A stretch of DNA of 64,000 bases from Bacilli bacterium (GTDB lineage Bacteria > Bacillota_I > Bacilli_A > RF39 > UBA660), in assembly GCA_017477845.1 (NCBI GenBank), contig JAFUTR010000017.1, positions 447-64,446 of the forward strand, written 5' to 3'. Below are positions 48,636 through 64,000 of this stretch, piece by piece. Within the stretch, counting starts at the first letter, position 1, and each line of letters opens with the position of its first letter. The translations under genes were made by a program, and so were the position numbers. The notes beneath the pieces are model-generated. The model ran no database searches, was not told the DNA's origin, and worked only from the letters and a program-made list of their open reading frames with translations.

Positions 48636-48853
48636 AATAAAAAACCCATCCTAAAAAGGACGAGTTATCGTGGTACCACCTTAGTTCATAGAATAATATT
48701 CTACCTTCATATTTTAACGCTTTTAAGCGGGTTTATCTAAATATCGATAAATCTGTTCCAGAACCATTCTCCATAAATTTCTATATCTAATCTCACCTTA
48801 ATAGACTCTCTTTGATAGATTATTATGTCTCTTTCCTTCATTACATTTAAACA
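48636..48853 (-). ncRNA. T-box leader (presumably Met-specific) controlling the dut-like gene and metG
   Basis: The minus strand reads ...ACUAAGGUGGUACCACGAUAACUCGUCCUUUUUAGGAUGGGUUUUUUAUU. This is the T-box sequence GGUGGUACC followed by a terminator. Stem I-type AGAGAG elements lie upstream. The promoter is TTGAAA (48883-48888), 16-bp spacer, TGaTATAAT (48861-48866). Confidence 0.75.
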
Positions 48854-56986: not shown

Positions 56987-58549
56987 TTAATCAAATAATT
57001 CCTTTGCTTTTTCTTTTAGGCTTTTTTTCTTTTGAACTTGATTATTAATTGTCTTTTCTTCTGTATATTTGAATTTTTCCTTGTTATTTTTATATTCTAG
57101 AGTATAATTCTTCCATTCTTCATCTGATATACATATAATTTTACAATCAAAATCAAATACTTTATTAATAATTTTTTCCACTTTATCTAATTCCTTATTA
57201 ATTTGATTTGCCATTCCAATTAATTTTGATACGAGAATCATATTGGAGTTGCTTGCTGCAACTGGTCTTGTATCAGATGACATCATTCTTGATAAATTTC
57301 CAAATTCTTCATCGAAGGCTAGATCCATTATTTTATTCCAGTTATTTCTTATTTTTGAAATAATATCCTTTTTTGGGTCATATAAAGTATTATTAACTCT
57401 GATTTCTTTTATATTTTCAAAATCAAATGATTTACTATTTTTATCACTGTTTAATATTTCTTCATTTTCTATTATAGCTTCTTCTTTTGTTTTAGTATTA
57501 TTATTTTTTAAAATATAATTATCTTGTTTTTTTTCATTGTCAATTATAAATTCAATTATAGATGCTTCTAAAATTATCTTAGGATTTTGTGATTTTTCCA
57601 TCATACTAACAACATTGTCTAATCTTATTATAAATGAGCAGTAAGATTTATTATATTTTTTTTCATTAATCATGCTATTTCTTACATAGTCTATAACACT
57701 ATTACAAAGATTAATCAAATCTATTCCTTCATCATAGTAACTATTTATCAAACTTAAAACTTGATCTATATTTTTGTTTTCTATATTTTGTATAAAGTTT
57801 TTAAGATCATCTTCTGAAATATTGCCAGAAATAGTTCTTATAACACTTGAATCAATTAAATTATTTGTATATGCTGAGGCTTTTTCTAGTATTCCTATAG
57901 CATCTCTTAATCCACCATTAGAATATCTGATTATTTCTTTGATTCCGGTGTCATCTATTTGAATATTTTCTTTTGCGGATATTTCCTCAAGTTTTCTTTT
58001 CATTGATTGAGAATCAATCTTTCTAAATTCGAATGTTTGGCACCTAGAAATAATTGTTAAAGGGACTTTTTGAAGTTCAGTTGTTGCTAAAATAAAAACA
58101 GCATGCTTAGGAGGTTCCTCTAATGTCTTAAGTAAGGCATTAAATGCCCCTGTTGAAAGCATATGAACCTCATCAATTATATAAACTTTATATTTTAATT
58201 CTGAAGGAACAAAAGATATTTTATTTTTTAGTTCTCTTATTTCATCAACGCCATTATTCGAGGCAGCATCTATTTCTAATATATCAACACAATTTGGATT
58301 AATAGAAGATAAACAGTTGGAGCATACTTCGCACTGAATTCCATCAGTTATTTTTTTACAATTAATTGTCCTTGACAGTATTTTTGCTATTGATGTTTTA
58401 CCTGTTCCACGTGGGCCATAAAACAAATAAGCATGTGAAATTTGATTATTATTAATTGCATTTTTTAAAATTTGTATTGTTATTTTTTGTCCCACTACAT
58501 CATTAAAATTTTTTGGTCTATATTTTCTGTATAAAGTTTGATGTTCCAT
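56987..58549 (-). CDS. dnaX: DNA polymerase III subunit gamma/tau
   Basis: LYRKYRPKNF, GPRGTGKTS, a zinc module CxxCxxC and SRCQ. The start is set at ATG 58549, after GGGGGA. Confidence 0.92.
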   Translation of the reverse strand: MEHQTLYRKYRPKNFNDVVGQKITIQILKNAINNNQISHAYLFYGPRGTGKTSIAKILSRTINCKKITDGIQCEVCSNCLSSINPNCVDILEIDAASNNGVDEIRELKNKISFVPSELKYKVYIIDEVHMLSTGAFNALLKTLEEPPKHAVFILATTELQKVPLTIISRCQTFEFRKIDSQSMKRKLEEISAKENIQIDDTGIKEIIRYSNGGLRDAIGILEKASAYTNNLIDSSVIRTISGNISEDDLKNFIQNIENKNIDQVLSLINSYYDEGIDLINLCNSVIDYVRNSMINEKKYNKSYCSFIIRLDNVVSMMEKSQNPKIILEASIIEFIIDNEKKQDNYILKNNNTKTKEEAIIENEEILNSDKNSKSFDFENIKEIRVNNTLYDPKKDIISKIRNNWNKIMDLAFDEEFGNLSRMMSSDTRPVAASNSNMILVSKLIGMANQINKELDKVEKIINKVFDFDCKIICISDEEWKNYTLEYKNNKEKFKYTEEKTINNQVQKKKSLKEKAKELFD

Positions 58550-58734
58550 ATCATCCCCCGCTTTTGATAACATATATATTATAACACATAAAGTATTATA
58601 TAAATTCTTTTTTTAATGTTTTTAATATGTAAAATTTACTATAAATCTTATTTTGTTTAGTGTAATTTAGTTCACATAAATTTAATAAACATTTTATCTT
58701 TGATATATTTTTGTCATATACTTTTTTTAAATAC

Positions 58735-58750
58735 TATTTCCTGGGAAATA
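58735..58750. other. Noc-binding-site-like palindrome 1
   Basis: In TATTTCCTGGGAAATA, the 14-bp core is 13/14 to ATTTCCCGGGAAAT. Confidence 0.55.
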
Positions 58751-58769
58751 TTTTTTCTCCGTTTTATTA

Positions 58770-58785
58770 TGTTTCACGTGAAACT
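58770..58785. other. parS-like site 1
   Basis: TGTTTCACGTGAAACT matches TGTTNCACGTGAAACA at 15/16 positions. The 14-bp core is a perfect palindrome. Confidence 0.75.
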
Positions 58786-58837
58786 TTTTTTCTTTTTCCA
58801 CTATTTTCCCTATTTTGCCTTTTATTATCTGTGTTAT

Positions 58838-58853
58838 TATTTCCTGGGAAATA
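58838..58853. other. Noc-binding-site-like palindrome 2
   Basis: TATTTCCTGGGAAATA. Confidence 0.55.
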
Positions 58854-58871
58854 TTTTTCTCCGTTTTATTA

Positions 58872-58887
58872 CGTTTCACGTGAAACT
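58872..58887. other. parS-like site 2
   Basis: CGTTTCACGTGAAACT, 14/16 to the parS consensus. The 14-bp core is perfect. Confidence 0.7.
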
Positions 58888-58942
58888 TCTTTTCCTTTTT
58901 CCACTATTTTTTCTATTTTACCTTTTTATCCTTTGGTATTAT

Positions 58943-58958
58943 TATTTCCCAGGAAATA
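58943..58958. other. Noc-binding-site-like palindrome 3 (centre flipped)
   Basis: TATTTCCCAGGAAATA, the reverse complement of the other copies. Confidence 0.55.
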
Positions 58959-58977
58959 TTTTTTCTCCTTTTTATTA

Positions 58978-58993
58978 TGTTTCACGTGAAACT
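58978..58993. other. parS-like site 3
   Basis: TGTTTCACGTGAAACT, 15/16 to the parS consensus. Confidence 0.75.
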
Positions 58994-59047
58994 TTTTTTC
59001 TTTTTCCACTTTTTTTTTCTATTTTACCTTTTGTCCTTTGGTATTAT

Positions 59048-59063
59048 TATTTCCTGGGAAATA
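59048..59063. other. Noc-binding-site-like palindrome 4
   Basis: TATTTCCTGGGAAATA. Confidence 0.55.
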
Positions 59064-59086
59064 TTTTTTCTCCGTTTTATTATGTT

Positions 59087-59551
59087 TCATTGAAGTTTTT
59101 TTCCTTTTTCCACTTTTTTATTTATTTTTTTCCTTATTAAGTAAAACTGCTTTTTTATTATCATGCTGCATGTTTTCTCAATATATTTATCATTAATTTT
59201 ATTCATTTGTATTTCAAAGTCACTATTTAATTCATTAGAAGAAGTAGCATAAATAACTTTCTTTATTCTTGAGGATTTTATAACATTTTTACACATTTCA
59301 CATGGTTCTAACGTTGTATAAATTATAACATTATCTAATCTCCAATTATTTAGTTTTCTATTTGCTTTTTCTATTGCAATGATTTCTGCATGCTTTGTCA
59401 CAATATTAGTACTATTTTTTTTATTATATCCCCTTGAAATAATTTTATTATCAAGAACCAAAACACATCCAATAGGGATTTCACCTATATCATAAGCTTT
59501 TTTAGCTTCTTTTAATGCTTTTTTCATAAAATACCTATCATCTTTTTCCAC
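59087..59551 (-). CDS. tadA: tRNA-specific adenosine deaminase
   Basis: HAEIIAI and PCEMC zinc motifs. It uses a GTG start at 59551, 7 nt after AAGGAGA. The last ~15 codons run into the decayed fourth repeat unit. Confidence 0.85.
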   Translation of the reverse strand: MEKDDRYFMKKALKEAKKAYDIGEIPIGCVLVLDNKIISRGYNKKNSTNIVTKHAEIIAIEKANRKLNNWRLDNVIIYTTLEPCEMCKNVIKSSRIKKVIYATSSNELNSDFEIQMNKINDKYIEKTCSMIIKKQFYLIRKKINKKVEKGKKLQ

Positions 59552-59576
59552 AATTATTCTCCTTTGTAAAAAAAAT

Positions 59577-59654
59577 GATGCACATAAGTACTTAATATAA
59601 CGTTAAGGCTGCTACATTCCTGTCCTGACCTGATTCCGCCGTACTTATTGCATC
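59577..59654 (-). ncRNA. ffs: small (about 78 nt) signal recognition particle RNA
   Basis: The minus strand reads GAUGCAAUAAGUAC...UCAGGUCAGGACAGGAAUGUAGCAGCC...GUACUUAUGUGCAUC. The terminal helix closes the molecule. The internal block resembles the domain IV consensus CAGGUCCGGAAGGAAGCAGCC. The promoter is TTGAAA (59684-59689), 17-bp spacer, TAAAAT (59661-59666), 7 nt before the 5' G. A U8 tract follows the 3' arm. Confidence 0.65.
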
Positions 59655-59685
59655 AATATAATTTTATAACAATCTTTTTATTTTT

Positions 59686-59716
59686 TCAATAAAAATAAGA
59701 GATTTTCTCTCTTATT
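59686..59716 (-). terminator. intrinsic terminator after gyrA
   Basis: AATAAGAGA (59694-59702) pairs with TCTCTTATT (59708-59716). It is followed on the minus strand by TTTTATTG. Confidence 0.65.
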
Positions 59717-62278
59717 TTATTGTTCATTTGTTTGATTTATTGTTTCATCTGTGTTTTCTTCCACATCTTCGCTTCCAACATTTTCTTCTTTTTCTATTAT
59801 CGCAGTAGTTGATACTTTTTGATCTTCTCTTAAACTTATTAATCTAACTCCTTGTGTGTTTCTGCTTAAAGTTGATATTTGAGATAATTCCATTCTTATA
59901 GTCATTCCACTATCAGTAATGATTATTAAATCTTCATTCTCATATACAGTTCTCAATGAAACTAATTTTCCATTTTTTTCTGTTATATTTAATGTTTTTA
60001 CTCCTTTACTTCCTCTATGTGTTAATCTATATTCATTAATTGGCGTTTTCTTTCCATAGCCTTTTTCTGTTACTATTAATACTTCTGCATTTGGTTCTAC
60101 TACTTCAGCACCAACGACATTTTCATTTTCTTCTAATTCTATTCCTTTTACTCCTGAACTTCCTCTTCCCATTATACGAACTTCTGTTTCATTAAATCTT
60201 ACTAATTTACCATTACTTGATCCTATAATTATTTCTTTATTACCATCTGTTTTTCTGACAGCAATTAATTCATCATCTTCTTTTAATACAATTGCTTTTT
60301 TACCATTCGCTCTTATATTCTCAAATTCTTCTCTTTTTGTTCTCTTTACTAATCCTTTTTTAGTAATAAATGTTAATAATGTTTGATCACTTTCTTCATT
60401 TACTGTTACAACTGATGTTATTTTTTCTTCTTTTTCTAGTGGTAATAGATTTATTATTGGTAATCCTTTTGCTTGTCTAGAAAATTCTGGAACCTCATAT
60501 CCTTTCATTCTATAAACTTTTCCATAATTACTAAACATTAATATATAATCATGAGTTTTCATCGACAAAAGTTTTTCTGGGAAATCTTCTTCATTTGTTG
60601 TCATACCTTTAATTCCAACTCCACCTCTATGCTGAGTTTTAAATGTATCATCAGGTATTCTTTTTATATATCCTTTATTTGTTAGTGCAATTAGAATATT
60701 TTCAACAGGAATTAATGATTCATCTTCTATATAATCTATAGCTGTCATATCAATTGTTGTTCTTCTATCATCATTATATTTTGCTTTTATTTCTAACATT
60801 TCTTTCTTAATTATATCTAACACTTTTTGTTCTGATGCTAAAATAGATTTCAATTCCTCTATTTCTGCTAATAATGCAGCTAGTTCAGCTTCAATCTTAT
60901 CTCTTTCCAATCCTGTTAGTCTTCTTAATCTCAATTCTAAGATTGCATCAGTTTGAACCTCACTTAGTCCAAATCTTTCCATTAGTTTCTCTTTGGCTTC
61001 AACATCAGTTTCAGCATTTCTTATAATTTTTACAACTTCGTCTATATTATCTAAAGCAATCTTATATCCTTCTAGAATATGAACTCTTTTTTCATCTTTA
61101 GCTAAATCATATTTTGTTCTTCTTATAATAACTTCCTTTTGGAAATCAATATACTTTGATATTATAGATTTTAAGCTTAGAGTTCTAGGAGTTAAACCAT
61201 CAAGCATTAAAAGAATTATCCCATACGATACTTGAAAATTTGTATGTTTATATAAGTTATTTAGTACTACTTGAGGATTTGCATCTTTTTTTAGTGTAAT
61301 TGTTATTTTTACTCCATCTTTTAAATCTGTATGATAATCTGCAATGCCTTCTATTGTCTTATTGTGAACAAGTTCTGCAACTTTGTTCTTTAATTCCATT
61401 GTGTTAACACCATATGGTACTTCAGTTATTACTATATTACTATGTGTTCCATGATCTTCAATAATTGCTCTACTTCTTAAAGTAATAGTTCCTCTTCCTG
61501 TATCGTACGCTTGTTTGATACCAGAATTTCCTAAAATTATTCCACCTGTTGGAAAATCGGGTCCTTTAATATATTGCATCAATCCTAAAGTATCTATTTC
61601 AGGATTATTAATATATGCTACACATCCATCAATTACTTCACCTAAATTATGAGGTGGTATATTAGTAGCCATACCTACAGCAATTCCCATTGCACCATTA
61701 ACAAGTACATTTGGAAATCTTCCAGGTAATACTCTTGGTTCTTTTCTTGTTACATCAAAGTTATCATCCATATCTACAGTGTCTTTTCCAATATCTCTTA
61801 ATAATTCAAGCGATATTTTTGAAAGACGAGACTCTGTGTAACGCATTGCTGCTGCTCCATCGCCTTCAATATTACCGAAGTTACCATGTCCATCTATTAA
61901 CATATATCTTTGGTTAAAATCTTGGGCCATTCTTACCATTGCTTCATAAATTGAAGAGTCCCCATGTGGATGATAGTTACCCATAACTTCACCAACTGTT
62001 TTTGCACTTTTTCTGTGTGGTTTATCAGGAGTATAACCAGATTCATACATTGACCATAAAATTCTTCTATGAACAGGTTTTAATCCATCTCTTAAATCTG
62101 GAAGCGCACGTGAGGCTATAACACTCATAGAATACTCTAAAAATGATGTTTTTACTTCATCAACGATGTTATTTTCTGCTAAACTATCTCTTTCATGGAA
62201 ATATCCACCAAAATTGTTATTATCTATTTCTACTCTTTCAAGAGATTCATCAAATTCTTCAATATTTTCGTTATCCAT
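59717..62278 (-). CDS. gyrA: DNA gyrase subunit A
   Basis: 853 aa with the active-site region AAMRYTE and a QRDR-type [11 protein letters not shown]. Confidence 0.98.
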
Positions 62279-62294
62279 TCAACTTCACTCCCTT

Positions 62295-64000
62295 CTAAAT
62301 ATCTAGATTCTGTACGTATCCAGCATTTTCTTCAATAAATTTTCTTCTTGGATCTACTTCGTCACCCATTAATTTTTCGAATATTGCATCTGCTGCTACA
62401 CAATCATCTACTGTAATTTTTCTTAAAACACGCTTTTCTATGTCCATTGTAGTTTCATTTAACTCTTCAGCATCCATTTCACCTAAACCTTTCATTCTAG
62501 CGATTTCTGCCCTATTTCTGATGTTTTCAGGTAATGAATTTAAATATTTATCAAGTTCTTGCTCATTTAGCACATATTTTCTAGTTTTTCCATGCATTAT
62601 TCTAAATAATGGAGGTTGAGCTGCATATACATGTCCTGCTTCTACAATTGGTCTAAAAAATCTATAAAATAAAGTTAATAATAGAACTCTGATATGAGAT
62701 CCATCCACGTCAGCATCGGTCATGATTACTATTTTGTCATATCTTAATTTATTTAAATCAAATTCTTCGCCAATCCCTGTACCGAAAGCAGTAATAATTG
62801 TTCTAATTTCTTCGTTAGAAAGAGCTCTATCTAATCTTGCTTTTTCAACATTTAATATTTTTCCTCTTAATGGAAGAATAGCTTGTGTCATTGAATCTCT
62901 TCCTTTTTTTGCTGATCCACCAGCTGAATCTCCCTCGACTATAAATATTTCTGATACTTTAGGGTCTTTACTCTTACAATCAGATAATTTACCAAAGAAA
63001 TTTGTTGTGGCAAGGTCACTTTTTCTTGTAATTTCCCTTGCTTTTCTTGCTGCATTTCTTGCACGACATGCTAGCATTGCCTTATTAACAATAGCTCTTG
63101 CATCATCTGGGTTTTCAAGTAAAAATCTTTCAAATCCTTGTGAAAATACGCTATCAGCAAGTTTTCTTACTTCTGAATTTCCTAAACGACCTTTTGTTTG
63201 CCCTTCGAATTGAGGATTTGGATGTTTACAAGATACAATCATTGTTAATCCTTCTTTTACATCATCTCCAGTAAGTGCTTCGTCTTTCTCTTTTAAAATA
63301 TTATTTTTTCTAGCATAATTATTTATTACTCTTGTTAAAGCACGTCTTACTCCTTCTTCATGAGTTCCTCCATCATGTGTATTAATGTTATTAACAAATG
63401 AATAAATGTTTTCATTATATCCTGTGTTATATTGCATTGCAACTTCAAAGAATACTCCATCTTCTTCACCTTCTAAGTGAATAATATCATCATGTACTGG
63501 TGTTTTTCCTGAATTAATAAATCTAACATATTCACTAATACCACCTTCGTACATAAAAGTTTCTCCAGTTGTATCTTCATCATCTCTATCATCTCTTAAA
63601 TTTATAGATAGTCCTTTATTTAAAAATGCTAATTCTCTGATTCTAACCATCAACGTATTATAATCATAAATATCTGAGTCAAATATTTCAGGATCAGGTT
63701 TAAAAGTGACTGTTGTTCCTGTTCTATTTTCTTCACAATCCCCTATTTCTTTTAATGGTTCTACAGTATGACCTCCATTTTCAAATTTTATATAATATAC
63801 TTTTCCATTTTTATATACCTTGACTTCTAACCATTTTGATAGAGCATTTACAACTGACGCTCCAACACCATGTAATCCTCCTGATACTTTGTAACCTCCT
63901 CCTCCAAATTTTCCACCAGCATGAAGTACTGTATAAACTGTTTCAACAGTTGATTTTTTTGTTTTTGGATGTATATCAACAGGTATTCCTCTACCATTAT
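62295..64000 (-). CDS. gyrB: DNA gyrase subunit B (N-terminus outside window)
   Basis: The track ORF 62295..63653 starts at an internal Met. My translation shows the frame stays open to the window edge (..[54 protein letters not shown]..). Toprim motifs EGDSAGG and [10 protein letters not shown] are present. Confidence 0.96.

Follow-up and report, generated by a model that had tools for sequence, protein, structure and literature searches.

The window analyzed here is the whole stretch of 64,000 nt from contig JAFUTR010000017.1 of a Bacilli bacterium, with positions counted from its first letter. It contains a region in which gyrB, gyrA, the small signal recognition particle (SRP) RNA, tadA, dnaX, ybaB, and recR all lie on the minus strand, and the spacer between tadA and dnaX is occupied by a tandem array of two kinds of palindrome. 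Tandem Repeats Finder placed the array at 58735-59128, with 3.8 copies of a 105-bp period that match at 88%, and a repeat search gave start-to-start spacings of 102, 106, and 105 bp. These results confirmed the tandem array claimed in an earlier note on this DNA (the original prediction). Each unit consists of a 16-bp palindrome, called A, a 19-bp gap, a different 16-bp palindrome, called B, and a 52-bp gap. The A-B center-to-center distances are 35 and 68 bp.

The individual sites were located by a motif scan. Palindrome A reads TATTTCCTGGGAAATA at 58735-58750 (A1), 58838-58853 (A2), and 59048-59063 (A4), and TATTTCCCAGGAAATA at 58943-58958 (A3); the form with CCCAGG at its center is that of A3. 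Palindrome B reads TGTTTCACGTGAAACT at 58770-58785 (B1) and 58978-58993 (B3), and CGTTTCACGTGAAACT at 58872-58887 (B2), with the core GTTTCACGTGAAAC in all three. A fourth B site, B4 (TGTTTCATTGAAG, 59083-59095), is decayed where it overlaps the tadA stop codon (TGA, minus strand, 59087-59089), as had been noted before.

The two palindromes were compared with the sites of two paralogous DNA-binding proteins, ParB (Spo0J) and Noc. The Noc-binding site (NBS) TATTTCCCGGGAAATA and the parS site TGTTTCACGTGAAACA are the in vitro oligonucleotides that Jalal et al. 2021 used for Bacillus subtilis Noc and ParB (PMC8429893). NBS and parS differ at half-site positions 1 and 6 only (PMC7383237). A1 to A4 each match NBS at 15/16 positions, with the mismatch at the center and NBS-type bases at half-site positions 1 and 6. 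B1 matches TGTTTCACGTGAAACA at 15/16 positions and B2 at 14/16, and against the parS consensus TGTTNCACGTGAAACA, B1 to B3 score 15/16, 14/16, and 15/16, with a perfect 14-bp core in all three. A search of the 64-kb window with up to three mismatches found 4 parS-like and 5 NBS-like matches. The number expected was 0.29 for each, and 0 of 100 shuffles reached the observed counts; a chance origin of these motif counts is therefore excluded. Counting the motifs had been suggested as a check, and within the window all parS and NBS matches with at most two mismatches fall inside the array.

The same pair of sites was found in many related genomes. One genome per species was scanned for an NBS-like core followed, after a gap of 10-40 bp, by a parS core, and at least 120 species-level genomes carry mixed NBS/parS clusters beside gyrA, tadA, and dnaX. 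The hosts are almost all metagenome-assembled genomes of uncultured, low-GC gut Bacilli bacteria, including Clostridium sp. CAG:710, CAG:1000, and CAG:417, which probably belong to the GTDB orders RFN20 and RF39 and their relatives (PMC10868615). The median GC content of these loci is 27%, and their GyrA proteins have a median identity of 69% to that of the window. The cluster lies between gyrA and tadA at 57 loci and between tadA and dnaX, as in the window, at 8, and the rest are mostly contig ends at these positions. Across the clade the consensus of A is TATTTCCCGGGAAATA (302 sites) and that of B is TGTTTCACGTGAAACA, and both 16-mers are ~99% conserved. A and B differ at exactly half-site positions 1 and 6, with A being of the NBS type (A at 1, C at 6). 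Since these consensuses equal the published oligonucleotides, A is NBS and B is parS by sequence, and the earlier assignment of the palindromes to Noc and ParB is supported at this level.

Some arrays also lie on contigs labeled Bacteroides helcogenes, Muribaculaceae, or Candidatus Scybalousia (L026, L017, L018, L048, L057, L065, L086, and others), the last of which is placed in Bacteroidales by NCBI taxonomy. L026 and L065 have 27% GC and GyrA proteins 73-76% identical to that of the window; L017 has 37% GC and a GyrA identity of 53%. These labels look like mis-binning or mis-classification.

At the scanned loci, the 55 kb covered by clusters contain 302 A and 472 B sites, compared with 66 A and 32 B in the remaining 794 kb. 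Examples include 13 A and 12 B sites at an 80-bp period, 9 and 9 at 75 bp, 8 and 8 at 64 bp, and 11 and 11 over 2.5 kb, and strict alternation is frequent. Adjacent sites formed A-B pairs in 466 of 654 cases, whereas 337 ± 10.5 were obtained when the order was shuffled within loci, a difference of ~12 standard deviations. The unit lengths (62-250 bp) and the spacers are unrelated between species, and the palindromes alone are held in common. Because the palindromes and their alternation have been kept while spacers and unit lengths differ, both palindromes and their pairing appear to be under selection. Comparison with relatives had been proposed as a way to expose a strain-specific duplication, and the array proved to be neither absent nor random in them. 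Six species were found by way of DnaA, without use of the motif (the window organism, L130, L132/133, L134, L143, and L144), and all of them carry mixed clusters around tadA. Copy number varies as well; there are 4 units in L132 and 5 in L133, which are strains with the same DnaA. The array grows and shrinks through unit duplication.

A k-mer census found no third motif common to 94 arrays. DnaA-box 8-mers (TTATCCAC) occur at 0.35/kb inside clusters and 0.08/kb outside, at 17 of the 120 loci (e.g. L021, L029, L037, L040, L105, and L118). The window array has none, and such a box was rejected as a shared array component. In L143 (19501-19530) and L144 (19395-19424), two NBS overlap by 2 bp (TATTTCCCGGGAAATATTTCCCAGGAAATA), which would set two dimers 14 bp apart. 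A mobile or plasmid origin was also considered and rejected, since the composite A/B pattern had no match in 2.9 million viral contigs and the window array had no blastn match in the plasmid collection.

The spacing of the sites is suggestive of helical phasing. A-B center distances across loci peak at 25-27, 35-37, and 47-49 bp with a period of 10.5-11 bp (Rayleigh p ~5e-6, each genome counted separately), and the periods of regular arrays lie near integer multiples of 10.3-10.5 bp (n=18, p ~1e-3, counted likewise). The window fits this pattern: its A-B distances are 35 and 68 bp, and its period is 105 bp.

Sites outside the clusters were unevenly divided between the two types. In 658 kb of relatives near the origin, 35 perfect NBS 16-mers were located over 1.5 kb away from the nearest cluster, compared to a chance estimate of ~0.1, and no isolated parS was found in the same sequence. 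NBS are known to be scattered over the chromosome except near its terminus and parS to be confined, and within this origin-proximal sequence the distribution in the relatives agrees with that pattern. Of these isolated NBS, 28 fall within open reading frames (ORFs) of at least 150 amino acids (aa), and 18 of the 35 are in the linker region of DnaX. The latter occupy a poorly conserved stretch at about codons 350-400 in at least 18 species (L009:3793, L016:3556, L018:4703, L038:2299, L040:6618, and 13 more) and are read in two frames, as ISREI or YFPGN. The use of two different reading frames indicates that the DNA site, and not the protein, is under selection. The window dnaX (56987-58549) has no such NBS. 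A second recurrent NBS was seen a few kb downstream, ~320 nt from the start of a ~240-aa ORF.

Genes for two ParB-family proteins were found in the window organism. A tblastn search with a Spo0J sequence revealed no ParB in the window or in the at least 120 loci, and the par genes were reached by contig walking from DnaA and from a neighboring gene of 1413 aa. Contig L001 is 100% identical to window positions 59060-64000 (4,941 bp), encodes an identical TadA, and carries dnaA, dnaN, a comK-like gene, recF, gyrB, gyrA, and tadA, with the first four lying beyond gyrB. Since L001 overlaps the window in this way and carries dnaA, the array lies ~8-9 kb from dnaA and is origin-proximal, as is a ParABS centromere. 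L140, which belongs to the same 28-kb contig as L001, encodes rsmG, a 465-aa ParB-family protein, ParA, a 295-aa ParB, and a DUF951 protein in that order, and these par genes lie ~22 kb from the array, across oriC. The original prediction had proposed looking for parB and noc near rsmG and soj, and both kinds of gene were thus found there in the window organism. The gene for this paralogue also stands between rsmG and parA in L138, L137, L132, L134, and L144.

The 295-aa protein (L140:12273-13160) has the ParB_N and helix-turn-helix domains and R173, and its best solved match is Spo0J (6SDK, 2.7e-63) compared to 9e-51 for Noc. The 465-aa protein (P0301) has Noc as its best solved match (9e-63) compared to 2e-51 for Spo0J, as measured on the L132 orthologue. 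Motifs for binding cytidine triphosphate (CTP), GERRxKA and ENLQR, are kept in both. Specificity is set at a few positions: Q173 reads adenine 1, R201 reads cytosine 6, and a lysine at either 179 or 184 is enough to serve as the permissive residue (PMC7383237). At positions 173, 179, 184, and 201 the Noc-like protein has Q-K-A-R and the ParB has R-M-N-S, and this mapping agrees with alignments to the solved Spo0J and Noc chains. The Noc-like protein is predicted by these residues to read NBS and the ParB to read parS. In an alignment of the query with its best 150 relatives (50% identity clusters), 148 of 151 sequences are Q-K-x-R. At position 184 the window organism has A and the others have N, S, T, or A, with K or R in 0 of 151. 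The clade ParB has Ser at position 201 (SMSHAR) in L140, L132, L134, L137, and L138. G201 is described as absolutely conserved in extant ParB, and variants with dual specificity mostly have T or S there (PMC7383237).

The N-terminus of the Noc-like protein differs from that of Noc. Membrane binding and nucleoid occlusion by Noc need a 10-residue amphipathic helix (PMC8429893). The Noc-like protein begins ~17 residues before NRFQPR, its residue 5 aligns with residues 26-28 of solved Noc chains, and an in-frame stop lies 6-9 codons upstream of its start, just upstream of the ribosome-binding site. Because the start corresponds to about Noc residue 26 and the stop lies just upstream, the protein is without helices alpha1 and alpha2 (~25 N-terminal residues) and has no membrane-targeting helix. 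This truncation is common: among the first 120 homologues, 119 have NRFQPR at residues 16-19, and the same shortening was seen in 133 of 150 representative relatives. An N/S/T-rich linker of 150-450 residues is inserted before the conserved C-terminal domain. In P0301, residues ~205-420 of this linker are rich in N/S/T/E/P, and an aromatic motif, G-F-K/S-F-V, was seen in 37 of 120 homologues; the motif could be an interaction or membrane-binding element in place of the lost helix. The expectation of a Noc in this genome was thus borne out in part: the protein carries NBS-type specificity residues, and it has no membrane N-terminus, no K184, and a score below the NCBIfam cut-off. By its residues it would be Noc-type in DNA specificity; it is not classed as a functional Noc, and a role in nucleoid occlusion should not be assumed.

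The altered center of the window A sites was traced to loss of CpG. The A center is CG in 84% of clade sites and CA or TG in 14%, and the window A sites are all of the minority type; nearest relatives of the window organism have CCCGGG and CCCAGG. As CG is found in 84% of clade A sites and the CpG observed/expected ratio in the window is 0.42, the TG and CA centers are the product of C-to-T decay, on either strand, of the CpG in an ancestral CCCGGG. A3 is the other-strand outcome of this decay. The flipped center of the third copy had been taken as a sign of selection on the palindrome arms, and it is instead explained by the two outcomes of CpG-to-TpG/CpA decay. Avoidance of restriction sites was considered and rejected, since CCGG and CCWGG occur as often as expected, and general CpG depletion is the better explanation. 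Over window positions 1-64000, the GpC ratio is 1.19, the TpG plus CpA excess is 1.13, and the GC content is 26%. GC skew is negative across the whole window, which is consistent with a single replichore.

The flanking genes define the spacer. tadA (154 aa, minus strand, 59087-59551) matches the Pfam families MafB19-deam and dCMP_cyt_deam_1, and its final ~14 codons lie within the array. dnaX (520 aa, minus strand, 56987-58549) was identified with Pfam. The ATG at 58549, with its GGGGGA ribosome-binding site, is the start codon; a record of the exact protein exists for this start only, and none was found for the 528-aa ORF from 58573. With the true start at 58549, the spacer is 537 bp instead of the 510 bp given previously. 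The array had also been said to sit in the slot where Bacillus has the SRP RNA gene. That gene is not missing here, as the small SRP RNA is present at 59569-59659 on the minus strand (Rfam RF00169, 47.7 bits vs. a gathering score of 40), between gyrA and tadA. gyrA (59717-62278) and gyrB (62295-64000, cut at the window end) follow on the minus strand, both from Pfam matches. The 3′ end of tadA enters the array at 59087-59128, and TadA is 154 aa here and 175 aa in a close relative (L130:10730-11257), so array turnover alters the TadA C-terminus.

Other roles for the spacer sequence were examined. A plus-strand ORF at 58700-59140 (146 aa) has no Pfam match and is a T-rich repeat artefact; a protein-coding array was therefore rejected, and the view that the gap has no credible gene stands. 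An RNA element was rejected as well, as the spacer has no Rfam match and the arms are invariant in sequence across species rather than covarying. The fold z-score of the minus-strand transcript, -9.3, reflects only pairing of the palindromes between repeats. No terminators were found at the array spacer, and a promoter scan there was not above background. Assemblers usually break at tandem repeats, and short-read contigs stop exactly at the array from both sides.

Several features of the wider region were also recorded. A T-box leader (RF00230, 96 bits) lies at 48653-48850 on the minus strand, upstream of a dUTPase gene and then a class-I tRNA-synthetase gene. A ComK-family gene (PF06338, ~152 aa) lies between dnaN and recF in every relative examined (L001:3651-4109, and the same place in L128, L132, L134, L143, and L144), which makes it a conserved and unusual addition to the dnaA operon. 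Between rpmH and dnaA there is a 554-aa ORF with no Pfam match (L128:8043-9707, equivalent to L001:1-646, partial), which was seen only in the window organism and its nearest relative and which divides the usual oriC-flanking intergenic region. A BcrAD_BadFG/DUF2229 protein of 1412-1413 aa, annotated as 2-hydroxyacyl-CoA dehydratase, is encoded between mnmE and mnmG in this genus (L140:3027-7265, L138:10001-14242); L132 and L134 are without it.

Taking together the identity of the sites, the presence of both genes, their specificity residues, and the alternation, phasing, and distribution of the sites, we think that the array is probably an origin-proximal centromere with two kinds of loading site, one for ParB and one for a Noc-type clamp. 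The B sites would nucleate the 295-aa Spo0J-type ParB, working with ParA, and the A sites would nucleate a second ParB-family CTPase, the 465-aa Noc-type paralogue encoded between rsmG and parA. Each protein would bind its predicted site, and both would load and slide as CTP clamps. With a 105-bp unit of ~10 helical turns, like sites would lie on the same side of the helix and unlike sites on opposite sides. In this way, clamps of both species would be loaded from the array into a single compact nucleoprotein complex ~9 kb from dnaA, and the interleaving may yield a complex that is mixed or in which the two species are mutually confined. A stronger version is that a Noc paralogue, having lost its anchor, was taken into the centromere as an integral second subunit, with two CTP clamps on interdigitated, phased sites giving either a mixed partition complex or Noc-type roadblocks that confine ParB. 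We regard this version as tentative, and it is somewhat doubtful that it holds in full.

A number of observations weigh against a two-clamp centromere. All four window A sites have a central mismatch, at position 7 of one half-site, and the fourth B site is decayed. The Noc-like protein is without the lysine at 184 that is near-invariant in Noc, and it scores 287.3 bits on the NCBIfam model TIGR04285 (nucleoid_noc), for which the cut-off is 315 and the ParB scores 249.6. In ~90 kb of the window organism there is no isolated NBS outside the array. Alternation is not universal, since L143 has the order AAABBB and many clusters are B-rich. The 120 scanned loci were chosen by having at least one close A-B pair, which is an ascertainment bias, and both phasing statistics treat related genomes as independent. 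Tightly interleaved loading sites could also hinder clamp sliding rather than help it.

Three other explanations were weighed against the two-clamp centromere. The interleaving may be functionless: a chance NBS-parS pair would have been multiplied, as minisatellites are, through replication slippage or unequal recombination, and the sites would act independently, as in Bacillus. The similarity of units within one array (at least 88%), the difference in copy number between L132 and L133, the breaks of short-read assemblies at the array, and the unsorted or B-rich clusters of some species would all fit such amplification. However, the same A-B pairing recurs in dozens of species whose spacers are unrelated and whose periods differ, A-B neighbors outnumber those in shuffled orders by the ~12 standard deviations given above, the A-B distances and array periods look phased at ~10.5 bp, and the viral contigs hold no match to the composite pattern, so we consider this explanation unlikely. 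A single ParB of dual specificity could instead read both A and B, which would leave an ordinary ParB centromere and a Noc-like protein that acts elsewhere. Ser201, present in the ParB of all five species read, would suit such a protein, because G201 is described as absolutely conserved in extant ParB and dual-specificity variants mostly have T or S at this position (PMC7383237). On the other hand, S201 is also permitted in strictly parS-specific variants, and NBS binding requires K or R at 179 or 184 (PMC7383237), where the clade ParB has M and N/S. A Q-K-x-R paralogue is also encoded in every relative examined, and the frequent isolated NBS without parS in relatives suggest that a dedicated protein reads them. 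A dual-specificity ParB is thus quite unlikely.

The array could also serve in control of transcription or replication, either as a KorB-like operator array acting on tadA or dnaX, or as a sink modulating DnaA-dependent initiation as reported for Staphylococcus aureus Noc, which restrains initiation (PMC5540599). The window array lies directly upstream of dnaX with promoter-like hexamers in between, and at 17 of 120 loci the clusters show a ~4-fold enrichment of DnaA-box 8-mers. In most species, however, the array lies between gyrA and tadA and not upstream of dnaX, and no promoter is consistently targeted. The window array has no good DnaA box, no third motif is conserved over 94 arrays, and there are up to 25 sites per array, far beyond the needs of an operator. 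A regulatory role of this kind is therefore very improbable.

ParB-parS and Noc-NBS are textbook paralogues that diverged to strictly separate DNA sites and jobs, namely segregation and nucleoid occlusion. By its sequence, the interleaved array would be a variation on these two known systems. A ParABS centromere is one at which ParB nucleates and spreads and to which it recruits SMC and ParA. Like B. subtilis ParABS (Spo0J, parS, Soj), the clade has the same 16-bp parS in an origin-proximal position and parA and parB genes that adjoin rsmG, and its ParB resembles Spo0J in having the N-terminal ParA-interaction motif LGKGL, GERR, ENLQR, and the helix-turn-helix domain. Unlike the single Bacillus sites, which extend over hundreds of kb, the clade parS sites are head-to-tail in one 0.3-2.5 kb array downstream of gyrA. 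There is also no parS within parB itself, each unit has a paralogue-type site too, and the clade ParB has Ser instead of the Gly of B. subtilis ParB at 201. With the Noc-NBS system of B. subtilis and S. aureus, the clade shares an identical NBS 16-mer, a gene between rsmG and soj, a protein that keeps Q173, K179, R201, and the CTP-binding motifs, and, in relatives, isolated NBS near the origin. It differs from that system in that the Noc-like sites are concentrated within the parS centromere. The Noc-like protein, unlike Noc, is without the ~25 N-terminal residues carrying the amphipathic helix (PMC8429893), is never K or R at position 184, has a long inserted linker, and falls below the NCBIfam cut-off.

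An iterated plasmid centromere provides a further comparison. In the F plasmid, sopC consists of 12 tandem repeats of 43 bp, and SopB, a ParB-family protein, binds a 16-bp inverted repeat in each of them. The clade arrays are like sopC in having head-to-tail units with a palindromic ParB-family site, an apparently helically phased length, and a variable copy number. They are unlike it in being chromosomal, in having two specificities per unit, and in having a unit length that varies by species. The window array is tandem and apparently phased, but its chromosomal location and its two site types set it apart from plasmid-type iterated centromeres.

No description of interleaved parS/NBS arrays was found in the literature searched. 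In the clade described here, two site types are interleaved, apparently phased, and kept in more than 100 species, and the Noc-type partner is without the helix that defines the known function of Noc. If the stronger version of the interpretation is true, the array would be a bacterial centromere served by two proteins, for which no precedent has been described. On the practical side, such arrays break short-read assemblies right next to oriC. The components are short oligonucleotides and soluble proteins, and the predictions could be addressed in vitro and in Escherichia coli with no need for culturing. The clade would offer a system for asking what follows from the loading of two CTP-clamp species next to each other, be it co-condensation, roadblocking, or insulation, what an anchor-less Noc does, and how centromere arrays turn over their units yet keep the cores that bind protein.

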